Below, piece after piece: positions 28,031 through 46,210 of a DNA stretch of 64,000 bases. Below the pieces are notes generated by a model. That model had not been told where the DNA came from, ran no database searches, and was given only the letters and a program-made list of their open reading frames with translations. The DNA lies in NCBI GenBank assembly GCA_054600435.1, contig BAAIJX010000005.1, positions 1-64,000 of the forward strand, in the 5' to 3' direction. The position numbers were made by a program, and so were the translations under genes. Source of the DNA: Neophaeotheca triangularis (taxonomy: Eukaryota). Numbering within the stretch: position 1 is the stretch's first letter; each line of letters begins with the position of its first letter.

Positions 28031-29471
28031 GATGTCGTCCTTGCGCGCTATCGTGTCTGGTGAAGTGAAGAGTGAAGGAAGAGCAGGAAGTTCTAAGCAT
28101 CCATGGATGCCTGCAAGTGACGGCCAGGGGGCACGAGCTTGCCGAACGCTGACTCAGCATGCGAGTATTGCCAAGCCCGCGCCTCGTATATTTTCTTTTC
28201 AATCTTCGTCTTCTTTCTTTTCTCCCTCAACAGTATCGCCTCTTTCCGGTTATCAATTCATACCTTATTGGTACTGTAATTCTACAATTATACTGTGCAG
28301 CTTTCATACCATCTCATGAGACGGCAGCAAGACAACAGGTAGAGCCTCCTCGAATCTGCCTACCATTACTCCCATTCCTTCAGTTACCCCAGTATTACAC
28401 CACAACACCACGATATGCCTGCTTCCTGGCTCCTTCACATAGCCTCCAAGCCTACTTCATTATTAGTGGAAGAGTAAAACCCACGGTGTAAGCAGCACCG
28501 CGTCTTCTCCACCCTTCTGATCCTGCCTCCAGTGGTGCAGAAGGACTATTTATTTGACGGACATTCCACCTATGTAATACTCGACTATCACTTTATGCAT
28601 TACTTGCTCGAAGCCCCTCAGGCTGAGATTTCGATCCAACCATGCCGTATTTGCGGGTTTGAGAGTACGGTAGGAGTGATGTATTTGGAAGGTCCCGGTA
28701 CATTTCGGCTGAGCAGATGGCTTGGTTACCACGTCCGATGGTCATTCCAATCTGCTTCTAAATACCTAGACAGACTTTCTTTCGTTCATTACATGCCAAG
28801 CTGGTGGCGGCCGCCTGCGATTAAACGCCGCCTGGGCCTTTGGACTTTACCTACCCTTTAAGCCATAGACCCGAGTACCTAGAGAGATGGATGTTGCAAG
28901 CCTCCGCCTGACGTCGAGAAGCTTTACGCAAACACCGCAGGGTACTTCCGCCACTTGTGAAAATCGAAATGCCCTAGCTACGGGGGAGTCGAGGCTCTAT
29001 AAGGTGTAGCAATCAACTAACCTGCTCTAGTAGAGACTGCATGCTGCTGACGGCGGGTCCCGTGCGGACGAGAAGCAAAGAGAGACCTAAGGCGAGATTG
29101 TAAGAACCCTGTGGGCAGCGCTTGATCTGTCCAGCGTTAACTGGAAGCAAGAAGGAGAGCTAGTTGACCGCGACATCGAATCTCGGAGAAAAGAGTCTCG
29201 TGGGGCTACGAAGTAGACAATAATGCGTAGGTCGATAAGGCTTAAGGGACTTAGGAACCGCTTAACTAGGTAATCCATGGACCATGGCCCATGGGGTGTC
29301 TGCCAAGCCTCCTGGCTGGGGGACTAGCGTCTCGAGTGCGCCACAACCGCAGAGCAGCCACAAGTAGTGAGATTGGATCGACATCGTACCTCAACTTCAG
29401 ATTATAGGTACTCATGCAGCTTCGCAGCGTCCACGCCAACGACCCCCCCTCCAGCCTCGTACTCCCTCGCC

Positions 29472-32400
29472 ATGGAGGCATCTCGTCAACGTGCGCCCAG
29501 GCTACGTCGGCAACACACCTCGGAAGACGGCGTGATCCAACATCGTACGGAACTGAGCCGCGAAAAAGACGTCTACAAGTACCTCCACACCTGGGCCAAC
29601 CTCCATCAACCTCCTGCCCTCTACAGACACGCCTTCCCCCCAGATAATGAGCCTCTCCATTCTCCGGAGCCGGGACGCGACACCACCTTGGCAGCTCTCG
29701 CCCAGCTCTGTGCTCTACGACTCAGAGCGCGCCGATGCTTGGTCACTCTCATCTCAACCGGCACCGAGTACGTTCTCGCCGAGGCGACATGCACCATGTC
29801 GCTGCAACATGATTTGGTGGAGGACGAAAAAGATACCCCCTGGCTGGGCACCTGCAGTTTCCCCCGCAGCGACGGCCTGAACGACGTCGTCGTGGACCAC
29901 TGGCGCAAGGCACGCCATCTCCGGGAGCTCCCTCAAGACAACCAGTTCTACTACAGCGAGGGCCGCTCGCCGCATTGGTTCATTGTCAGTGACACGATCA
30001 ATAATCCCGAATACAACGACCGTGCCTTTGTGTCTCGCGCGCCTCGGCTGCGCTTCTTCTGCTCCGTTCCGCTCCGTGATTCCCATGGCTCGGTTATCGG
30101 ATCCCTGAGCGTCATGGACGACAAGCCTCGCTTCGGAGTCAGTGCGTCCGAGATGCTTCTCCTTGAAGGTAATGTAGACACAATCGCAGCCCACCTGGAC
30201 TCTTTGGTGACAAAGTCGCGGCAGCAGCGGAGCGAGCGCCTCATCCAGGCTCTGGGACTGTTCAACAGCCGTAAAGACTCGCTAAGAGAATGGTGGCTGG
30301 GGCAAGACATGCGACGCCCGAGAGAAGGTGGTCGCTACATGCACCAAGAGGTGGATTCTCGGGAACAACAACAAGATAAGATGGACAAGGAGTTTGGCGT
30401 TCAAGACGCATCCGAATCATCTGATGCAGCTCAGCGGCGCAAAAAGCGCGAGTTCAGCGACGACTCGCAGTCTACCGAGGCTGTTAATACAACGCCAGCC
30501 ACTGAGACGAATGCAAACGCCTCCAATGCCAGGGACAAGGAGGGAATAACTGGCACCGATTTTGACACCCGTCCTGCTGCACCTCTACAGTCCCAACCCG
30601 AGTTTGCTGGCGTCGGTGGCGATCCAGCGCAATCAGCGGCATCTCGGCAAAGCAATACGCGGAAGAAAAGACAGGGACCGGGGACAGCAGGCTTCGACTT
30701 GCCTCGACAGTCGGAGGATGCATACGCCCGAGCTAGCAACCTCATCTGCGAGGCGATGCACGTCGATGGCGTGGTGTTTGTTGACGCCAAGGCTGCGTCT
30801 GCGGCTCTTCCCTCGAGGCGTCGTCCCGGGGGCAGTGAAGCCCCAGGCGCACACTTAAGTTCGTCGACACTGACCCAAAGTGGAGCGGCCACGGGCACTT
30901 CAAGTGACGATGGTGCTGCTTCAGACGATCCCAATGCTTCCAAACTATGTACGCTCAAAGGATTCGCTACGAGAAATCGATCGACGCTCGCAGGTCCATC
31001 TCCGTCTCGCCAATTCTCGCTTCACGAGGTAGAGCTTCGAAAACTAATCAAAAGATACCCTAACGGCAAAGTCTTCAACTTCGCCGAATCCGGTGGCATA
31101 TACTCGAGCTCGGGCGAGGACCCAGGACCCGGTTCTAGCGAATCTAGTGAAGACCAACCGAGCACGCGACAAGACCCCCGCAAAACTCGTGCAAGCAGAG
31201 ACGCAAAGAGACTGGGAGAAGTCCTCGTCGGAGCACGGAGCATTGCCTTTTTCCCTATCATGGATCACGCTTCGGAGTTTTACCGCTCTGCAGTTTTCGT
31301 CTGGAGCACAACACCACTGCGATATTTCGACAGCATCGAAGACATGACTTACTTATCTGCCTTTGCGCACAGCATGACGGCGGAAATTGCCCGATTGCAA
31401 ACACTTGCGTCAGACAATGCAAAAGCCACATTCATCTCATCAATCAGCCACGAACTGCGATCGCCTCTTCACGGCGTCCTAGCCGGCGCTGAGCTGTTAC
31501 AAGAGACCGAGCTCACTAGCTTCCAGCACGAGATGGCCTGCACAGTCTCCATGGCCGGGAGGACTTTACTAGATACGTTGGTTACGCACTGCACCGTTCT
31601 GCGAATACGGCAACTACTAACGTTACCAGGGTGAACAACGTCCTAGACTACTCCAAACTCAGCAGTCGTGTGCATCCAGGCATGAAGAGTACCACGCACG
31701 AAAAAGACAGCTCTTTGGTCGACCTCGCGCGCCTTGTAGAAGAGTGGGTCGTTATCTTTGTCTCCCTGCTATCCTACATGTCTGACCTCCTTGCAGCACC
31801 GTGGAAACGGTTGTTTCGGCTCACAGATATCATCGCACGTTAGGGTCCTGGCTCCCGAACGGGGGCAACTCGCAAGTAGCCCAGTCATACACGCCTCCGT
31901 CGTCTGTCGGCGAAGATGTGGCTGTAGTGCTCGATATTGAGAAGAGAGACAATTGGACGGGCGAGTTTTCGCGCGGTTCTTGGACCCGGGTCATTACAAA
32001 CCTAGTTGGTGTGTCCTCTCAACAGCGCTGCAGCAATCAAGCACCCGCGTTCGCTTCTCCCGATTACTCCTTCCGCTGACTGCCACAAAAGGGAACGCTC
32101 TCAAATACACGAGAGCGGGCGTTGTAACCGTGTCATTGCGTGCACCCGATAAGGCTCCAGAGAGTGACACTCTCCCTGTCGAACTTGTTGTCCAAGATAC
32201 TGGGATAGGCATGTCTGAAGACTTCCTCGCTGCCGACCTCTTCACGCCATATCGACAAGCCGACCCAAACACCGTCGGCACCGGTCTAGGCCTCAGTATT
32301 GTGAAGCACATTGCTCAAACCATCGGAGCCCGGCTCGACATTCAAAGCGAGCTCGACAAAGGAACCAGAGTCTCCATGAGGCTTAGCGTAAATTTGAGCA

Positions 32401-33784
32401 ACGATGGACTTGCTGCCGAGAACGTTGACGAACAAGATTCACGACTCGTCGAAGATGCACCATCCATAAGTCCACGTCTATTTCACCTCTTTGCCCCGAA
32501 CGAGACACAAGGAGTCGCCGCTGGCGCAATAGGCCGGAGTGTTATTCGTACCGCTTCTGATTGGCTGCAAAGCGTCACGACGTCCGGCTTATACTGGGCC
32601 ACGGACTCCGACAATAGCGTTTGCGCTATACTTGAGAGCGAGCTCGAAATATTGGCAGAGTCACAGCCTCGCGCCCTTTCTTTGGCCATGTCCGGGCTTG
32701 TCACCCGCAACATGCCCCTCCTTGTTCTCGCGCGCAATCTGCATGGCATTTCGCCTTCGTCTGTCTTGGACGACTTCAAAGTACGCCCTATATTCATTCA
32801 TCAACCGTAAGTCACTCGTAACGGTGGGCAACTGTTTGAACCTTCCAGCATGTACCGAGCGTGCTGTTCCACCCTGTCGAAACGGGCTGACACCCAACAC
32901 AGCATCGGCCCTCGGAAACTACTTCGAGCAGTGAAAGCGAGCCAAGATCCTTTGGCAGAGATGAGCCAACAGAGGCCTTCACTGCTATCGTCTCGGCAAG
33001 CAAGCACCTCAGCTACTAGTAAGGGAGACAACGGGAGTCAAATGGACCGCCTACCAACCCGGAGCTCTGTCAAGAGAGCGCAGAGTAGCGACAACAAGTC
33101 TTCGAGCCTTGCAGCTGCTGGATCCGCTAGTGGCGTTTCTGTGCGCACTTCTCTCAACAGAATGCCCTCCATCAGAGCGAGCGTCGCCAAATCTCCGCAG
33201 GCGGTCAATCCGTCGGCTCTCGAGCCACCTTCCTACGAGCACAGTGCTCAACTTGAGTCCAGCGAAGTCCCAAACCCGGCTAATAGAGAGACTGCGCTTC
33301 TAGTCGAAGATAACGTAATCAATCTAAAGGTAGGTCTTGACCAAGGAACTCAGCGCAAATACCAGAACAAGCTGTCCACGACTCCGCAACCGACTAATCA
33401 TATCCCCTGTAACAGTTCCTAAAAGTCCTGATGGACAAGCTCAAACTTCCCTACGACACGGCCGTCGACGGCGAAAAAGCCCTCGACATGTTCACCGCGA
33501 ACCCCTTTCGATACTTCCTCATCTTGACCGACATATCCATGCCCATCATGGACGGCAACGAAGCAACGGCTCGGATTCGTGACGTAGAGAAAAAGCGGAA
33601 AATCCCGCGCACAACCATCGTAGCCATCTCCGGAGTCGCGAACGTCGAGTCGCAGAAAACCTCTTTTGCTGCAGGAGTCGATCAGTATTTTGTTAAACCG
33701 ATCAGGATGAAGGATATCAGTAGTGTGGTTGAGGGGATTAAGCTGGCGGCTAAGGGCGGGTTGGTGGAAGCTGCTGAGACATGA
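29472..33784 (+). CDS. Hybrid histidine kinase (GAF-HisKA-HATPase-receiver), resembling fungal group I HHKs
   Basis: GAF (LRFFCSVPLRDSHGSVIGSLSVMDDKPR), H-box FISSISHELRSPLHG, N-box NLVGNALKYT, G1 DTGIGM, G2 GTGLGLSIV, receiver LLVEDNVIN...TDISMPIMDG...FVKP. Introns 31577-31629, 31744-31796, 32009-32091, 32807-32902 and 33330-33415 keep the frame. First ATG at 29472. Confidence 0.9.
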
Positions 33785-35834: not shown

Positions 35835-36959
35835 CTAACCCTGCTTAGGCTTCTGCGCCTGCGGCCCCATCTCCTTGCTAAACGCCGCGTAACTAACCTG
35901 CAACCCAGCCAGCGCCGTCATGCCCACGTACAAGATCACCAACAGCAGCAAACTGACTGTGAGCGTCATGAATAGTCCTGGGGTGAGGAATTGGTACTTC
36001 TCGAAGAGCGGGAGGTTAGATTGCGGGTTGGTGGTGGAGTTATCCTTGTCGTCCGAGGAGTCGGCGCGGTGGTGGAGTTGGCGCTTGAGGTCTTGGTGGA
36101 GTGCGCTCGGGTAGGGTTCGTCCATTTCGTATTGGTATTCGGGGAGGTCTTGGGGAAGGTTGGTGGTGGTAGTGGTGGTCGTGTAGATTAGGACGTATGC
36201 GGCGTTAGAGGGGAGTTGGGAGAGCTGCTTCTCGAGGGCCGCGTCTGTGGATTAATCATGTTAGCCTCGAGTCTCCAACGACAGACCACAACCGCAGCGG
36301 ATCAGGCTTACCGTTCGCAACAAGCGCTTCAGCTCTCGCCGGCTGCTCCTTCGGCAGAGCCTCGTAGCTAACCTGAGCAATCTTGTTTCCATGACCCGTC
36401 TCAACAACACGCTCAAAACCTGTCCTCAAAGTCAGCCTCCAAACCCCTCCTAAACCACCATCTCCCCCGAACGCTCGACTCACCTCCCTGCAACCCAACC
36501 GCTCTCTCACCCCCACAGCCCTCCACCAAGCCCTGCACCAAACCCTCCCCATCCAACGCACCAAATACACTCCCGACCTCCATAACCGACTCTCGACTCT
36601 CCCTCACTCGCTCCCGCAGAGCAGGCATCGCACTCTCCTCCTCAAAATCCCCCCCGCCCACTCCAGCCTGATGTACCACAACCGCATATTCCCACCCGGC
36701 ACACTCAGGCTCGCTCGTCAAAGCACCCATGACCTTGTCCCGTAGACTCGAGGCGGTCGCCACGTTCGCGCTCTGGAGCTCGAGACTGCGGTTTTAGAAG
36801 TTAGTGCTTTGTGTGTTGTAGTACGGGCAAGCTCGAGAGTGCGGCTTACCCGGTTTTTGCGCCATTGTTGGTGGTCAGGAAGAAGGGAGATGCGTTTTCG
36901 AAAGCGCTGGCGAGGCTTGTTGCGGCTGCGCTTGTCGTGAGGAGGCGCCTGAGTTGCAT
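35835..36959 (-). CDS. V-ATPase assembly/accessory protein, Voa1/Ac45 (BIG1-like annotation) type I membrane protein
   Basis: Exons 36959-36850, 36785-36484, 36419-36312, 36244-35835. Signal peptide MQLRRLLTTSAAATSLASAF and C-terminal LPLFEKYQFLTPGLFM-TM-LQVSYAAFSKEMGP, typical of the Ac45/Voa1 TM segment. Confidence 0.8.
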
Positions 36960-37186
36960 GGTGAGGTGGCTCTGGCTGGGGTTGCGCCTTTGAATCTGGT
37001 CCAGCTGGCTTTGGTTTGGTCTATTGTTGTAGAGAGGGAGTGGGTAATGCGAGAGGTGTTGCTGTTGTTATCGCTGGACTCGGGTCGAGTGAGGTGAGGT
37101 GTGGTATAGGAAGTGTGGTGATGGAGGTGTGGTGTTGGTAGTGACGGTGCAGCTTGCCCGTGTAAGCAGGCAGGCGAGCTCGCTCG

Positions 37187-38200
37187 GACGGTCACCCAAG
37201 CATACCCAGCGACGGATTTCTGTCCCTACGTCCCGCTTAAACTTCTATCTTTCACTTTCCTAGTCATAAGATAATTGTATATACCTCGCTATATAGACTT
37301 CTATATTACTAGAAGACTAAGGATATCATGCTTTACCGTAAGATTTACCTTAGGTTATATCGTAAGGCATCTTACCCCGTCGCATTATAAGGCCCCTTCG
37401 CATTTTACCCTATCACATTATGAGGCCCCGTCGCATTATGAGGTCGCCGTCGCATTATAAGGCCCTATCGCATTATGAGGCCCCGTCGCATCTTGTCCCG
37501 TCGCATTATAAGGCCCTATCGCATTATAAGGTGGCCGTCGCATTATGAGGCCCCGTCGCATTATAAGGCCCCGTCGCATCTTATCCCGTCGCATTATAAG
37601 GCCCCGTCGCATCTTGTCCCGTCGCATTATGAGGTCGCCGTCGCATTATGAGGCCCTATCGCATTATAAGGCCCCGTCGTATCTTGTCCCGTCGCATTAT
37701 AAGGTCGCCGTCGCATTATGAGGCCCCGTCGCATTATGAGGTTGCCGTCGCATTATAAGGTCGCCGTTGCATTATAAGGCCCTGTCATATCTTGTCCCGT
37801 CGCATTATGAGGTCGCCGTCGCATTATGAGGTCGCCGTCGCATTATGAGGCCCCATCGTATCTTATCCCGTCGCATTATGAGGTCGCCCGGGCCGTCGTA
37901 TTATGAGGCCCCGTCGTATTATGAGGCCCTATCGCGTCTTGCCCCGTCGTATCTTGCCCCGTCGTACCGTGAGGTCGCCGTCGTATCGTGAAGCCCGTCG
38001 CATTGTGAGGTCGTAGGCCCCGTCGTACCGTGAGGTCGCCGTCGCATCGTGAAGCCCGTCGCATCTCGAAGTCGCCGTCGCATCTCGAGGTCGCTGTCGT
38101 ATTAAAACATTGTTATCTAGGTAGGGGGGGAAGAATAGGTAGAAGTTTAAGCGGGACATTAGGACAGAAATCCGTCGCTGGGTATGCTTGGGTGACCGTC
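37187..38200. mobile_element. Non-autonomous TIR DNA element (MITE-like, 1,014 bp) with internal minisatellite
   Basis: Left TIR 37187-37247 and right TIR 38140-38200 are inverted copies, with the first 39 bp identical and 3 mismatches in 61 bp. CTCG flanks both ends directly (37183-37186, 38201-38204). No transposase ORF; the interior is TpA-rich. Confidence 0.85.
37377..38103. repeat. Compound minisatellite, about 41 units of mostly 15-19 bp beginning CCGTCGCAT
   Basis: Unit types CCGTCGCATTATRAGGCC (18), CCGTCGCATTATRAGGTCG (19) and CCGTCGCATCTTGTC (15) are interspersed; counted by eye. Confidence 0.95.
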
Positions 38201-38772
38201 CTCGGGAGACGGGACGATTTCCGCCCTTGAGCTTGCCTTCTTCCTCTCCCCGGCCATCCCCATCAACCTTCTGAGATGATGGGATCTGGTTTATTCTGGG
38301 GGACGTTCGAAGAACATTCCATCGTCTCCAACGTGACGTTCACATTCTGAAAGTAGACGGGAAGAAGGATCCCAGAATTGCAAGTATCATGGCTGTTATC
38401 GAATGTGTCAACCTCGACCAGTGTAAGGCATCAGGCGCGATTAGGACCATTCAAAGTACATCCACGGTATTGTATTACGGGTGGGTTACTGTACAGCTAC
38501 CATCATTAGACCAGTCTGACTCTTGCCTCCCTTCTCCTTCCCTTTTCGCTCTCGCCAGCGAAGAACAAATGCTAAACAACTACAAGCAAAAGAGTACCAA
38601 CCACGAACTAAAACCAAGGCCTGAACCAAGGGCAAAGAACAATAACAAGCCCAACTCGGCATAATTCACCATCCGAAGCACACCCCTTTACTTACTAAAC
38701 CAACCACATTCAACAAATGACAGCCTCTAGCGCAACCCCAGCACGATCCCCAACTCCCGACTCCCCCATTCA

Positions 38773-39449: not shown

Positions 39450-41669
39450 TCACCTCCCCTTCCCGCTCCCAAACCTCTTCAAACTCCCCCACCTGCCAAC
39501 CCCTCTCTCCCCAGTAATCCCCGCTCCCGCTCCCGCTCCCGCTCCAGTGCCAGTACCAGTGCCAGTTCCAGCCCCCGCCGGCAGAGCAGGCACCGCTGGC
39601 CTCGGGTGCAAATCCTCCTCCCGCACGCCCGCGCGCTGCATCAGATCGCCGAAAGTGGTGAACCGCTGCTCCCCCTGCTGTGGGGCTGAAGGGTGGAAAG
39701 CTGTGGTTGGGAAGTGCTGGGGAGTTGGGGTTGGGTTGGTGACGGTGGAGTTTTGGGTTTGGCTTTGCGGGGAGCTGAAGGGGGAGGCGAGGTTGCGGGA
39801 TGCTGTTGGTAGGGTGTTTGGGGCTGTTATTGCCGTGGCCGTTGTTGCTGGTGTTGGGGGCTTGGTAGGTGGTTTTGCGGCTCGTCGGGGCGGGCTGGCT
39901 GCGGAGAGGGTCGTTGTGTGCTGGGCTGGATGTAGGGGTTGGCGGGTCGGGGTGTCGTCGTCGGCGTTGGGGTTGATGTTGACGCTGCCGTTGTATGAGT
40001 ATGGGTACAGGATTCCTGCGGTCGATTTATGGGGGTTTGGGTTATGGTTTGCCGACGCTGGGGCGTGGGTGTAGCTGCCGCCGCTGAGGAAGGTCGGGCT
40101 CACGGGGGAGGAGTCTTCGATGGAAGAAACAGTTTGCGTGCTTGCTACGCTTGCTGCTCGAGGGCGGGAGAAGCGCTGCTGCTGCTGCTGTTGTTGCTGT
40201 GGCTGAGCTGCGTGGCGAGGCTGATGGGGAGAAATGTAGTCGCTGCCACTGCGGTCTACGCCGATCATTATTTCTTCTTGGCTTGGAGTCTTGAGGTGAT
40301 TGGGTCGCATGGGCCACATCCATCGCCCGCTCGCGCTGCGGCGGTTTTCTGAGATTGCGTTTGGGTTCGCTTCTTCCGTCATCCGGCGGTGGAGGGAGCG
40401 CTCGCTCCGCTGCTTGCGAAGTTCGCGAATCGGGGTGATTTTGTTTTTGCTGCTTGGGGTTGAGGTGTTGGTTTTCTGGAAGAGTGGAAGTACTGATAGG
40501 GTGCCACGTTTAAGGTGGGCAGGCAACGGTGGTTGGGTTGGTATTGGTGTTGATGGGTCGTACTTGAATGCTGGCGAGCTGAAGGTCATGTCGCTTGGAG
40601 ACCAGAGTTTGGTTGAGAGGCGTGAGAGAGCACTCTTAGGAGTAGCTGCAGCCTTTTCGCCAGAGGGTGAAGTAATTGAGGTAGTGTTGCCGAAGGATTG
40701 TAAGTCTTCCGCCTTCTCGTCGAAGGGCTGCATTCGTGGTGGTGTGCCCCTAGCAAAGTCGGTGCGATGCGTGCCTGTCACGTCTGTAACTGGCTCCGAG
40801 ATTGATCGACCGTGCATAGTTGGGCGGTACGACAGGGCGGGCGACGGTCCCAAAGATGTTAACTGATCGCGGGTCCTACGCTTCTCCTCGTCACTGTCGG
40901 CGTAGCAAGTGTTGCGCTTTTTGCGAAAGACGCAGAAGTAGAGCAGTAGTGCTATCAGTATGCCACCGATGAAGATGCCAGGCAGGAAGCCTGCCACGAA
41001 TGAGCGACCAGAGAAACCGTCACCATCATCGTGAGTCGTGCTTGCACTGGTAGGATCCGTATCATCACCCTCCGTTTCTTTGGTTTGTGCCCCTGCAGCT
41101 CCAGCAGAAGCCGTTTGAGGGGGAGAAGAGGTAGATACAGGCGCACTGACAGTAATAGAAGCCGTAGGAGCGCTCATGCTGGCACTAGGTATATTCGACG
41201 TTTTTGCGGCATCCTGCATAGCGTAGCACCTGTCGTCCTGGCATTGATAACCCATGGGACAGCAGTTCGAGCCACAGCTCTCCAACTCCAGCGTAGGCTC
41301 GGAATGAATCATATTGTCTGGCATCATGGTTGCGTTTTGAGCGCCTTGAGCGCATGTTATTGGCGCAATCACGGAGCAGTCGACGCCCTCCGGGCAGCAC
41401 AACACTGCGCTGGATTCGGTGGTATTGAGCTGTACGCATATTGTCGAAGATTCGCAGCAGAAGTCTGACGCGAAAGCTGCACCGCACTGAGAGAGGGCAG
41501 GATTGCCACCGCAGGTTGCAGAGCCATCGCCGTCCGCACGAGGAAATATGAGATGGCTGGCGAAGGTTGGAAGAGCTTTAAAGGTTGACGTTTCGGTTGG
41601 AAGGGCCGCGACCAGCGCGGGTAGGTAGTAAAGTGAGGCGATAACGGCGAGCTGAATGATGCGCTGCAT
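39450..41669 (-). CDS. Single-pass cell-surface protein with Cys-rich ectodomain, S/T stalk and long disordered cytoplasmic tail (Mid2/sensor-like architecture)
   Basis: Signal peptide MQRIIQLAVIASLYYLPALVAALP (ATG 41669; alternative ATG 41684), a Cys-rich domain (DFCCESSTIC...CCPEGVDC...CGSNCCPMGYQC), S/T-rich linker, and TM FVAGFLPGIFIGGILIALLLYFCVF followed by RKKR. Confidence 0.8.
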   Translation of the reverse strand: MQRIIQLAVIASLYYLPALVAALPTETSTFKALPTFASHLIFPRADGDGSATCGGNPALSQCGAAFASDFCCESSTICVQLNTTESSAVLCCPEGVDCSVIAPITCAQGAQNATMMPDNMIHSEPTLELESCGSNCCPMGYQCQDDRCYAMQDAAKTSNIPSASMSAPTASITVSAPVSTSSPPQTASAGAAGAQTKETEGDDTDPTSASTTHDDGDGFSGRSFVAGFLPGIFIGGILIALLLYFCVFRKKRNTCYADSDEEKRRTRDQLTSLGPSPALSYRPTMHGRSISEPVTDVTGTHRTDFARGTPPRMQPFDEKAEDLQSFGNTTSITSPSGEKAAATPKSALSRLSTKLWSPSDMTFSSPAFKYDPSTPIPTQPPLPAHLKRGTLSVLPLFQKTNTSTPSSKNKITPIRELRKQRSERSLHRRMTEEANPNAISENRRSASGRWMWPMRPNHLKTPSQEEIMIGVDRSGSDYISPHQPRHAAQPQQQQQQQQRFSRPRAASVASTQTVSSIEDSSPVSPTFLSGGSYTHAPASANHNPNPHKSTAGILYPYSYNGSVNINPNADDDTPTRQPLHPAQHTTTLSAASPPRRAAKPPTKPPTPATTATAITAPNTLPTASRNLASPFSSPQSQTQNSTVTNPTPTPQHFPTTAFHPSAPQQGEQRFTTFGDLMQRAGVREEDLHPRPAVPALPAGAGTGTGTGTGAGAGAGAGITGERGVGRWGSLKRFGSGKGR

Positions 41670-42335
41670 CTTTGCTTGAAGCATGGAAGATTTGAGTGTC
41701 GCCGTCCGAAGGAACTGTCGTCTAGATGTGTTGCAGAGAGGTACTGGAAGAAGAGATGTTGCCTCGAGCAATAGAAGAGCCAACGCAACGATAATGACAC
41801 CGAAAGAAAAGTGCGACTCGCGCAAAAGACACAACACTGGGAAAAGATTTCACCTACAGGTCGACAAAGAGAATCATAGGGAGGCAAGACAGTCTTACGG
41901 TAGGTAGGAGGAAGTGCAACACAGCCTTCCAAGTCGCGTGCGCGAACCATCCCTCCTCGGCACCGACTGAGTGGGCGCGATGCTGTAGCTGGGCTACTGA
42001 CGTGAAGCCATTTGCAGCAGCAAAGACATTGGACAAGGCGCTGTCTGACGGTCTATACTAGATTAGCTTGGGCGGTTGTGAGACGTTTGTTTCGTTCATG
42101 TCGAGGTGAAGTCCCTTGGAAGGCTTTCATTGGACGCCGACGCTACCTACCAACCTACCTACCAACCCTACCTACCTACGCATTTGAGCCGCTTGGTCCG
42201 TGTCCTCAAGCGGCGCTTCCAAGGTTCTCTCCCCCGATGGATTCCATCCAAGTTAGCATTATTCCAGCAGACAGCAGAATTGGCCAGCTTGGGTGGGATA
42301 TTCTCGTACAGTTCGCGATACCCAACATACCAGCC

Positions 42336-43375
42336 ATGATCACGAGACGGATATCAGGCGTCTTGAGCGGTCTTGCGGCGGCGGAGAGCGGTGGTGCTTG
42401 GACGTGTGCTTCTTGCGTAGGTCGTCCGCTCCGGTCGGCAGCCCTGCTAAGAGACCCTACTCTAACAATCCCTCTTTACAGCGTAGAGCATCTCGCCCCC
42501 TACCTTCGCAACGACAATCGCCTCTGACTCGCTTCCAACAAACGCGCTCCCTCTTCAACGTCCCCCGCCTCGCTCACAACGAAATCTTCGAACGCGATGG
42601 CGTACGGGGTCTCTACTCAGCCGCGGGCTACAAAATCGGCTGGAAGATGAACATGGCAGGCTTGACGCAAAAGCTAAACGAGCTCACTGCCGGCCTACCA
42701 GAGAATAACGCACAATGCAAAGACCTCGTATTACGTTATGCACGAGACCCCATGTCTGCATCACTCTTCAACCACGCTAGCATGGCGCACAATGTCGAAT
42801 TCTTCTACCGCGGCTTCAGCACCAAACCCCTAGAGCTCGAATACCAGCCTGGCTTGCAACAGAGTTTAGAGCGCTCTTTTGGCAGCATCGACACCCTCCG
42901 CACGACCATGTTGGACACGGCAGCGGGCATGTTTGGGCCGGGTTTCGTCTGGCTTGTATGGGCCAATGGTCCCGGGGGCATGGGCAAGAGCACGCAAGGA
43001 GAGGGCTGGCGCATTCTCAACACCTACAGCGCCGGCACCCCTTACCCGGAAGCCGGCTACAGACAGCAGAGCGTGGACATGAACAATCAACACACGCAAC
43101 CGCAAAACACTGCCGGGCAATTCGGTCAATATAGTCGGACTGCAAAGGACAATGCTAGGGTGCCACCGGGAGGCACCAAGCTCACACCAGTGCTGTGTGT
43201 CAACACTTGGGAACATGCGTATCTTCCCGATTTCGGGGTGGATAGGAAGAGGCTGTATTTAAGCGCTTGGTGGAATGCTATTGACTGGCACACGGTCTTT
43301 GAGAATGCGCCGCCGGGTGCGGCTAGGGGGGAGCCTAGTGCAAACAAGTTCTCCAGTAGCGGGTGGAGAGGTTGA
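42336..43375 (+). CDS. RSM26: Fe/Mn-SOD-fold mitochondrial small-subunit ribosomal protein (mS42/mS43; Rsm26/Mrp1 family)
   Basis: Exons 42336-42416 and 42482-43375 (GTAGGT...CTAAC...CAG). Presequence MITRRISG...WTCASC|RRASR, then LFNHASMAHN, SFGSIDTLR, MFGPGFVWLV and PVLCVNTWEHAY. The metal-ligand Asp is replaced by Asn, so it is not a catalytic SOD. Confidence 0.85.
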
Positions 43376-44481: not shown

Positions 44482-44722
44482 CCCGGCTCGTCTCGTTGCG
44501 TCTCTGTGGTCCTGGTTTCTTTTTCACATCGAGTAGGTTGTTCTCTATTTCTCGGTTCAATTGTTCTATTCATTGTATCCCACATTGCTTCTCGTTGTCG
44601 TCAATCTATATCGACGGTCTCTCTACTCGCTAGGTGGCTCACATTGAGTTCACATCGCTCTACAATCCATCTCCCTCAACTATCAGCCGTTACCCTAGGC
44701 TCTCAGAGCACTCACGACGAAA

Positions 44723-46210
44723 ATGGCCATCAAAGAGCTTCCCGCCCCTCCTCAGCCCGAGAGCAAGCCTATCGAGCAACCACCATGGCGCGAAACGCCG
44801 TTGGTCGAATCTACCAAGCTGTCTAAGGCTGCCGGATGGTACGTTGTGACAGACACATTCCTTTCTAACGCACTCATCTCCATTTCGCCGACCCCCCCCT
44901 TCTTCGTCTTGCTGCACTCCCCGTGCATCCATGAAAACAACCCCCCTCTCATTGCTCCCCTCAGCAACCACGCCTCAACACAAACGATCCCGTCCCTCCA
45001 CCAACCAACCCAAAAACCGCACAGACCACTAAATCGCAGAAGCAGAATCCACCTAAAACTGGACCTCCTCCAACCCAGCGGCTCCTTCAAATCCCGCGGC
45101 ATCGGCCAACTAATGCTAACCCGGCTGGCCAACTCTCCCACCCCGGAGCGCATTCACTTCTACTCCTCCTCGGGCGGCAACGCCGGTCTCGCCTGCGTAA
45201 CCGCCGCGCGCGCTCTCAACCGCCCCGCCACCGTCTGCGTCCCTCTGACGACCAAGCCGGCGATGATCGCCAAGATCGAGGCCGCGGGCGCTTGGGAAGT
45301 CATCCAGTACGGCGAGGGACTGCGCGAGGCCGACGAGTACTTGAAAGACGTCGTCATCGGCGGCAAGCGGGATGGCGATGCCGTCGAGGCCGTTTACATT
45401 CCGCCCTTTGACGACCCGGAGATTTGGAAAGGCAACCAGACCGTCCTCGAGGAGATTACGCGGCAGATGCCCCGCGGCGTGGCGCCGGATGCTGTCGTCT
45501 GCTCTGTCGGGGGCGGTGGGCTGTTCAACGGCATCGTGCAGGGCATTCTGGAGAATTCGGCTGATAAGAGCAGGGTCGGCGCCGGCTGGGAGCGGACGCA
45601 GGTGCTGGCTGTGGAGACCAAAGGGGCGGATTCGCTGGGTACGGCGTTGGAGCGGGATGAGGAGACGACTCTGCAGAAGGTGACGAGTTTGGCGACGAGT
45701 CTGGGGTGTGCGAGGGTGAGTTGGAAGTGTTTTGAGTTGGCGAGGCGGTATGTGGCCGAGGGCATGGTCAAGACTGCGACGATGAGTGATGCCGAGGCCG
45801 CCATGGGTTGTTGGCGGTTTGCGGATGATGAGCGGATGATGGTGGAGCTGGCGTGTGGTGTGGCTTTGGCGGTGTGTTATGGGGGTAGGTTGGAGAGGTT
45901 TTTGGGCAGGAAGGTCGACCCAGAGGAGAATGTGGTGATTGTGGTTTGCGGTGGCAGCAATGTCAGTTCACAGATTCTCGAGCAGTGGAGGGCGGAGTAT
46001 GGGGCGGAGTTTGAGAACGAGGTTGATCAGCCCGTGGTCAGAGTCGACTCTCACTCGAATGAGGTTGAGGGTTACCCGAAGGCGGTCGACGGCTTTACTA
46101 CGGATGGGCATGTTGACGGGTATGTGGATGAGTATGAGTATGCAAACGGCATCAGTGGGTTTTCCAACGGCATCAACGGTTTTACGAACGACATTAGTGT
46201 CCAGGCTTGA
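44723..46210 (+). CDS. CHA1: Catabolic L-serine/L-threonine dehydratase (PLP-dependent)
   Basis: PWRETPLVES...KLDLLQPSGSFKSRG (PLP Lys), SSGGNAGLA, IPPFDDPEIWKG, CSVGGGGL, VVCGGS. Probable in-frame intron 44839-45042 gives AAGC|RIHLK. Confidence 0.9.
   Translation: MAIKELPAPPQPESKPIEQPPWRETPLVESTKLSKAAGWYVVTDTFLSNALISISPTPPFFVLLHSPCIHENNPPLIAPLSNHASTQTIPSLHQPTQKPHRPLNRRSRIHLKLDLLQPSGSFKSRGIGQLMLTRLANSPTPERIHFYSSSGGNAGLACVTAARALNRPATVCVPLTTKPAMIAKIEAAGAWEVIQYGEGLREADEYLKDVVIGGKRDGDAVEAVYIPPFDDPEIWKGNQTVLEEITRQMPRGVAPDAVVCSVGGGGLFNGIVQGILENSADKSRVGAGWERTQVLAVETKGADSLGTALERDEETTLQKVTSLATSLGCARVSWKCFELARRYVAEGMVKTATMSDAEAAMGCWRFADDERMMVELACGVALAVCYGGRLERFLGRKVDPEENVVIVVCGGSNVSSQILEQWRAEYGAEFENEVDQPVVRVDSHSNEVEGYPKAVDGFTTDGHVDGYVDEYEYANGISGFSNGINGFTNDISVQA

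Follow-up and report, generated by a model that had tools for sequence, protein, structure and literature searches.

What moved the 1,014-bp element that lies at positions 37187 to 38200 of the window (the whole 64,000-nucleotide stretch of DNA analyzed here), and to which group of DNA transposons does it belong? An earlier note had reported 61-bp terminal inverted repeats (TIRs) with the first 39 bp perfect, the tetranucleotide CTCG on both flanks, and no coding capacity, all of which is borne out. The inverted repeats form both ends of the element and match at 58 of 61 positions, the left TIR (37187 to 37247, forward strand) starting with GACGG and the right TIR (38140 to 38200, reverse strand) ending with CCGTC. 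The target-site duplications, CTCG in each case, occupy 37183 to 37186 and 38201 to 38204, and the longest stop-free frame within the element has 89 codons.

Two further features are absent from that description. Most of the interior (725 bp, 71% of the element; 37375 to 38099, forward strand) is a unidirectional head-to-tail minisatellite of about 38 units of 15 to 19 bp with the core CCGTCGCAT, a word found 29 times inside the element and not once in the remaining 62,986 bases of the window. The other is a retained beginning of a transposase gene. The first ~164 bp (37187 to 37350, forward strand) are homologous, at 81%, to the left terminus of 5.6-kb transposase-bearing copies elsewhere in the assembly and include the transposase ATG at 37328, which aligns with element position 142 of the copy on contig C32 and opens a decayed remnant of the first transposase codons (37328 to 37360, forward strand). 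The minisatellite shares the motif CCGTCGC with the TIR and was considered as a set of extra transposase-binding sites; however, 343 of 5,000 shuffled TIRs share it too, so that the likeness is within chance, and the 5.6-kb copies lack the motif, which also disfavors this role. A reading of the element as having two left ends was judged weak from a comparison of positions 35 to 100, where its right end scored 0.57 to 0.64 against the left end of the partners and 0.48 to 0.53 against their right end.

The assembly that contains the window (G000; 25.4 Mb, 136 contigs) holds 12 exact, mismatch-free occurrences of the first 30 TIR bases, which fall into six pairs; the reversed control gave none. 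These pairs, subfamily A, comprise the window copy, a 751-bp copy on C17, two 5.6-kb copies on C32 and C26, and two long copies, of 25.3 kb on C4 (the 5.6-kb element plus a nested insert) and 21.9 kb on C1 (a short element plus a nested insert). Three sister subfamilies were reached by tracking the transposase and the minisatellite through the assembly: B (GACGGTCGTA; C20, C16, C8:284878, and one copy split over C74 and C43), C (GACTG; C8:126422-152859, C58, and C8:476446-504957), and D (GACCG; C9). The C74 and C43 halves were treated as one copy on the strength of their matching duplication, an inferred pairing. The earlier note had proposed aligning other copies with their flanks, and doing so gave at least 14 paired elements in four subfamilies, with duplications of their own (all copy counts are lower bounds); neither of the outcomes it named as contrary, a single-copy TIR with no empty site in any relative or copies with the termini and duplications of a described family, was encountered.

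All seven non-autonomous copies carry related minisatellites; the 5.6-kb copies have none. Two of the seven also bear the end of another subfamily just within their own: in C58:62478-64173 and C8:476446-504957, C-type outer ends are followed ~95 to 130 bp inward by a D-type or degenerate B-type TIR and then by the minisatellite. The combination of a foreign end inside the own end with related minisatellites suggests that these are chimeric non-autonomous elements, perhaps products of chimeric repair.

The inserts that lengthen C4:259031-284357 and C1:1054246-1076137 (loci L030 to L035) are damaged by RIP, start with TG, and have direct terminal repeats, resembling LTR retrotransposons, with a 5-bp duplication around the C4 insert. 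Related inserts also interrupt the C74/C43 and C8 copies, i.e., the elements seed nested repeat blocks. Elsewhere, a C-type end without a partner lies near a contig start (C4:821-2345, L180), where the RIP-damaged sequence on its inner side contains telomere-like TAACCC words, and a short minisatellite piece for which no paired ends were found sits at the edge of a RIP-damaged block (C2:322684, L173).

The paired copies define the termini and the length of the duplication. It is 4 bp in 12 of the 14 elements (GGGA, four times CTAG, CTCG, GTGT, CTTA, GTGG, ATAC, TTGG, and TCTA), 5 bp in two (C58 and C9), and 6 bp in none; in subfamilies A and B it is 4 bp in 10 of 10. The termini read GAC...GTC throughout, save for one G-to-A and one internal change, with GA...TC at 27 of the 28 paired ends, AA at the other, and G as the terminal base in 27/28. 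An alternative reading raised in the earlier note, a 5-bp CTCGG duplication with asymmetric ends, is excluded by the other copies, since 12/12 subfamily A ends share the starting 30-mer and each of the six pairs has its own 4-bp duplication (probability of one 4-mer match by chance, 0.004).

The 4-bp sites favor a central pyrimidine-purine (YR) step, present in 8 of 12 (P = 0.002; background, 0.237), and none of the 12 has a central RY (P = 0.04), in a test that was picked after the sites had been seen and that leans on the four CTAG sites; among distinct sites the YR count is five of nine (P = 0.04). In the available portion of PMC4422553, retroviral integrases that make 4-bp duplications show a central YR bias that is inversely related to duplication length, which makes a sharply bent target the likely cause of the bias seen here.

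An empty site with a single CTCG, which the earlier note had suggested looking for, was found in another sample, sequencing run X2, whose flanks are ~3 to 6% diverged from the window. A single contig (depth, 91.9; 98 letters on its shorter side) joins 37182 to 38201, omitting exactly 1,018 bp (1,014 + 4) and leaving one CTCG. Run X1 is not independent, as it may be the assembly's own source. X2 also shows the TIR beside other flanks. The insertion is polymorphic, and the X2 contig fits a never-filled site or a clean excision alike.

The earlier inference of a non-autonomous element with its transposase elsewhere, to be sought in longer copies, holds: the 5.6-kb copies bear the same TIR as the window copy together with a degraded transposase gene, which in each of them begins 142 bp inside the left end. 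With stops read as X, its core matches the integrase core Pfam rva_4 above the cut-off (E = 4e-11); the N-terminal part, separated from the core by an inferred intron, matches Clr5 below the cut-off (E = 0.057). In the copy on C26, D, D, and E are preserved, with a spacing of 45. Judged from these motifs, the gene appears to be a RIP-destroyed transposase gene of HTH plus integrase-core (DD45E) type with IS3EU/GingerRoot motifs. Its product is 41% identical to the intact homologue P0008, 49% to L040, and 50% to P0032; named homologues occur in Aspergillus, Letharia, Oleoguttula, and Peltula. The predicted structure of an intact homologue, P0061 (pLDDT, 90.6), is all-helical before the core and matches TnsB transpososomes and retroviral intasomes, albeit weakly (E = 5e-5 at best; TM, 0.2 to 0.5 over the core).

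Differences among copies are nearly all transitions (381/387, 492/501, and 531/538), and stops interrupt each of the 11 transposase matches in the assembly, the signature of RIP. None of them is an intact transposase of this subfamily, and what ties the enzyme to the ends is that both reside in the same element. The 5.6-kb element also has two more degraded frames, conserved among copies and without a Pfam match, which could in principle take part in mobilization.

Taken together, the window element is most probably (about 0.85) a non-autonomous derivative of the 5.6-kb DNA transposon, of an IS3EU-related lineage and with cut and paste as its proposed mode. This has direct support in the ends shared with the 5.6-kb copies, in the 4-bp duplication and the empty site, and in the partners' gene with its HTH and DDE core. 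DDE enzymes nick at the 3' end and join the strand to target phosphates, and repair fills the gaps. Applied here, the helical N-terminal domains of the transposase would bind each end at its conserved first ~34 bp, and the core would cut at GTC-3', with a 3' C where IS3EU has A. Both ends would then be joined to target phosphates 4 nt apart, the target being bent at its central flexible step, and gap repair by the host would create the duplication. The short copy most likely arose by an internal deletion just past the transposase start codon, the interior being replaced by the minisatellite, and would then have been moved in trans by the partner transposase, before RIP destroyed every transposase copy found in the assembly. 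Beyond this, we lean slightly toward an undescribed IS3EU-like branch that has changed its cut base (3' C for the A of IS3EU, IS3, and IS481) and its stagger (4, sometimes 5, not 6), and that bears the mark of target bending known from 4-bp intasomes.

It is possible, although we think it unlikely, that this is an ordinary catalogued subgroup, i.e., that fungal IS3EU families with GAC ends and 4- to 5-bp duplications already stand in Repbase or in a subscription paper. The protein family is indeed widespread, with 2,361 representatives at E = 0.001. The published rules, as far as the available text of each source goes, differ from what is seen here: in complete IS3EU families the ends are always TA..TA and the duplication is usually 6 bp (PMC10045372, Kojima and Bao 2023), fungal ones have TAYGG..CCRTA ends and 6 bp (PMC12730594, Kojima 2025), and GingerRoot elements with TA ends have 6 bp in 72 of 77 copies, with no shorter class (PMC6839031, Cerbin et al. 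2019). Searches of the open literature found no IS3EU description with GAC ends or 4-bp duplications; of 27 matches to TIR strings in papers, the 20 listed were unrelated by title, and the accessible part of PMC4522978 held no matching family. The earlier note's suggestion of a poorly described or new family accordingly stands for the GAC...GTC end and the 4-bp duplication, both undescribed in the literature searched, but not for the enzyme, whose class is known.

A control set of 82 loci with homologous transposases (80 of at least 496 confirmed, plus two) points the same way. It yielded 16 candidate end pairs, none of which starts with GAC and 10 of which start with TACGG or TATGG; L065 and L100 were left out because their inverted matches are internal arrays. 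A clean duplication was seen at four of the 16, all metagenome relatives with TACGG ends and all with 6 bp, and at two of the four the TIR is nearly the same as that of IS3EU-1_TuIn. The TACGG/6-bp relatives stand at ~35 to 45% identity. In trees built without Repbase sequences (a quick tree of 52 rows and a careful one of 22), the five transposases of this assembly share a clade with L040 (100/97) that is separate from the TAYGG loci, a grouping into which RIP may draw the five rows; the TAYGG rows as one clade are not rejected (p-AU = 0.214).

Five of the loci matched the 15-mers of our ends at ≤2 mismatches. The best match, at L058 and L070, falls within another inserted sequence and lacks a partner end. 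Compared with L065, L082, and L089, L058 and L070 carry a 3.2-kb insertion on the upstream side of the transposase; at L065, long inverted arrays flank the gene on both sides. A distant homologue at L083 (WNGC01014159.1, 57-4462) has 172-bp TIRs starting with GGCGG and no duplication, possibly another non-TA end. Viral contigs gave neither a homologue nor a TIR. Among prokaryote genomes, an IS3EU-like transposase was found on short contigs of two bacterial MAGs (L119 and L120), which are probably contaminated with mis-binned eukaryotic DNA.

It is very improbable that the element comes from a different superfamily making 4-bp duplications (IS481EU, Ginger1, Sola, Chapaev, Kolobok, or piggyBac) and carries the IS3EU-like gene as a passenger. 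Kolobok and piggyBac have TTAA as their target site, and no fixed TTAA target is present at the copies. Against a passenger, the gene has a constant position, 142 bp in, among the 5.6-kb copies and goes together with the ends in four subfamilies. In the excerpts available, IS481EU has ~4-bp duplications and is poorly separated from IS3EU in trees (PMC10045372), and Ginger1 makes 4-bp duplications (PMC6839031); however, the gene motifs, compared by eye, fit the IS3EU rows of the PMC10045372 supplement and not the IS481EU rows shown there, and Ginger ends are TG...CA (PMC6839031), unlike those here. The earlier note, which saw no obvious match among the 4-bp superfamilies it named, left IS3EU/GingerRoot off its list.

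Least credible is a reading in which the outer G and C are target bases, the element ends in ACGG...CCGT like Styx/REP9, and the duplication is an ordinary 6 bp at C-NNNN-G targets. In its favor, the Styx TIR in the available part of PMC10853768 begins with ACGG, the empty-site length of 1,018 bp fits 1,012 + 6 equally, and three of 12 copies tested conform. Nine of the 12, the window copy included, do not, which refutes the reading for this genome; 23 of the 24 tested ends have G as their outermost base, with variable bases outside the 4-mer, and the Styx duplications listed there have no fixed outer bases.

Returning to the IS3EU-related derivative, the polymorphic insertion adjoins a host gene for a V-ATPase accessory subunit with an Ac45/VOA1 transmembrane domain (35835 to 36959, reverse strand; Pfam PF20520, E = 2e-14), lying 227 bp upstream of its inferred ATG; the gene is context, outside the element. 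Also in the window are a hybrid histidine kinase gene (29328 to 33784, forward; GAF, HisKA, and receiver), two ordinary genes, for an Fe/Mn-SOD-fold protein (42257 to 43375, forward; Sod_Fe_C) and a PLP-dependent enzyme (44699 to 46210, forward; PALP), and a 799-codon open frame (39450 to 41849, reverse) with Cys-rich and Ser/Thr-rich parts, a likely membrane segment, and no Pfam match.

In scope this adds a single dead transposon family, known from one assembly. However, DNA transposons are in practice classified by their ends and duplication length, and the lineage breaks both published IS3EU rules although it keeps the enzyme, so that an annotation looking for TA...TA and 6 bp will overlook it. 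With closely related enzymes that have 4-, 5-, and 6-bp staggers, it would become testable what in the structure sets the stagger length and the choice of 3'-end base. If the branch is as we propose, it would offer a natural 4-5-6 series in one eukaryotic transposase family, which could reveal the residues that set duplication length, and would warrant its own subgroup name.

Among known systems, Ginger1 resembles the family in its 4-bp duplication, but the TG...CA ends and H2C2/GPY motifs given in the consulted part of PMC6839031 set it apart from an element with GA...TC ends. IS481EU, known from parabasalids, has a related DDE core, and ~4-bp duplications occur in it according to the portion of PMC10045372 at hand; it differs in host group, in motifs, and in having 15- and 25-bp duplications, whereas only 4 to 5 bp are seen here. 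The retroviral integrases of PFV and MoMLV, as treated in the same portion of PMC4422553, share the fold class, the 4-bp duplication, the central YR preference, and the avoidance of RY; the element has no LTRs or reverse transcriptase, and the parallel is mechanistic only.

Styx/REP9 of Zymoseptoria, going by the passages available, is likewise related to IS3EU and resident in a RIP-active ascomycete, and is multigenic as the 5.6-kb element may be, with a non-canonical ACGG end, RIP-dead copies, and degenerate copies moved in trans. Styx differs in its length (7.9 kb against 5.6 kb for the partners here), its four genes, its ends one base shorter, and its 6-bp duplication (33/36 copies; PMC8232023 and PMC10853768).

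Closest are IS3EU and GingerRoot, which share with the window family the integrase-type DDE core motifs, TIRs of >30 bp, and, for IS3EU, end bases 2 to 5 (ACGG, as in TACGG); the two additional degraded frames of the 5.6-kb element are candidates for the extra genes that accompany the transposase in that group. The absence of an HHCC zinc domain and the presence of a helical N-terminal region are also common to them, going by the P0061 model and the weak HTH/Clr5 matches. In contrast, the first base is G and not T and the 3' end C and not A, departing from TA...TA (occasionally TG...CA); the duplication is 4 or 5 bp where theirs is 6 (in GingerRoot rarely 7 to 8); and the sites are biased toward central YR and CTAG where GingerRoot and REP9, in the text available, report no sequence consensus. 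By its motifs, then, the transposase belongs with IS3EU/GingerRoot and would work like IS3EU, but the element departs from both end features of that group and is for this reason not filed as a canonical IS3EU member.
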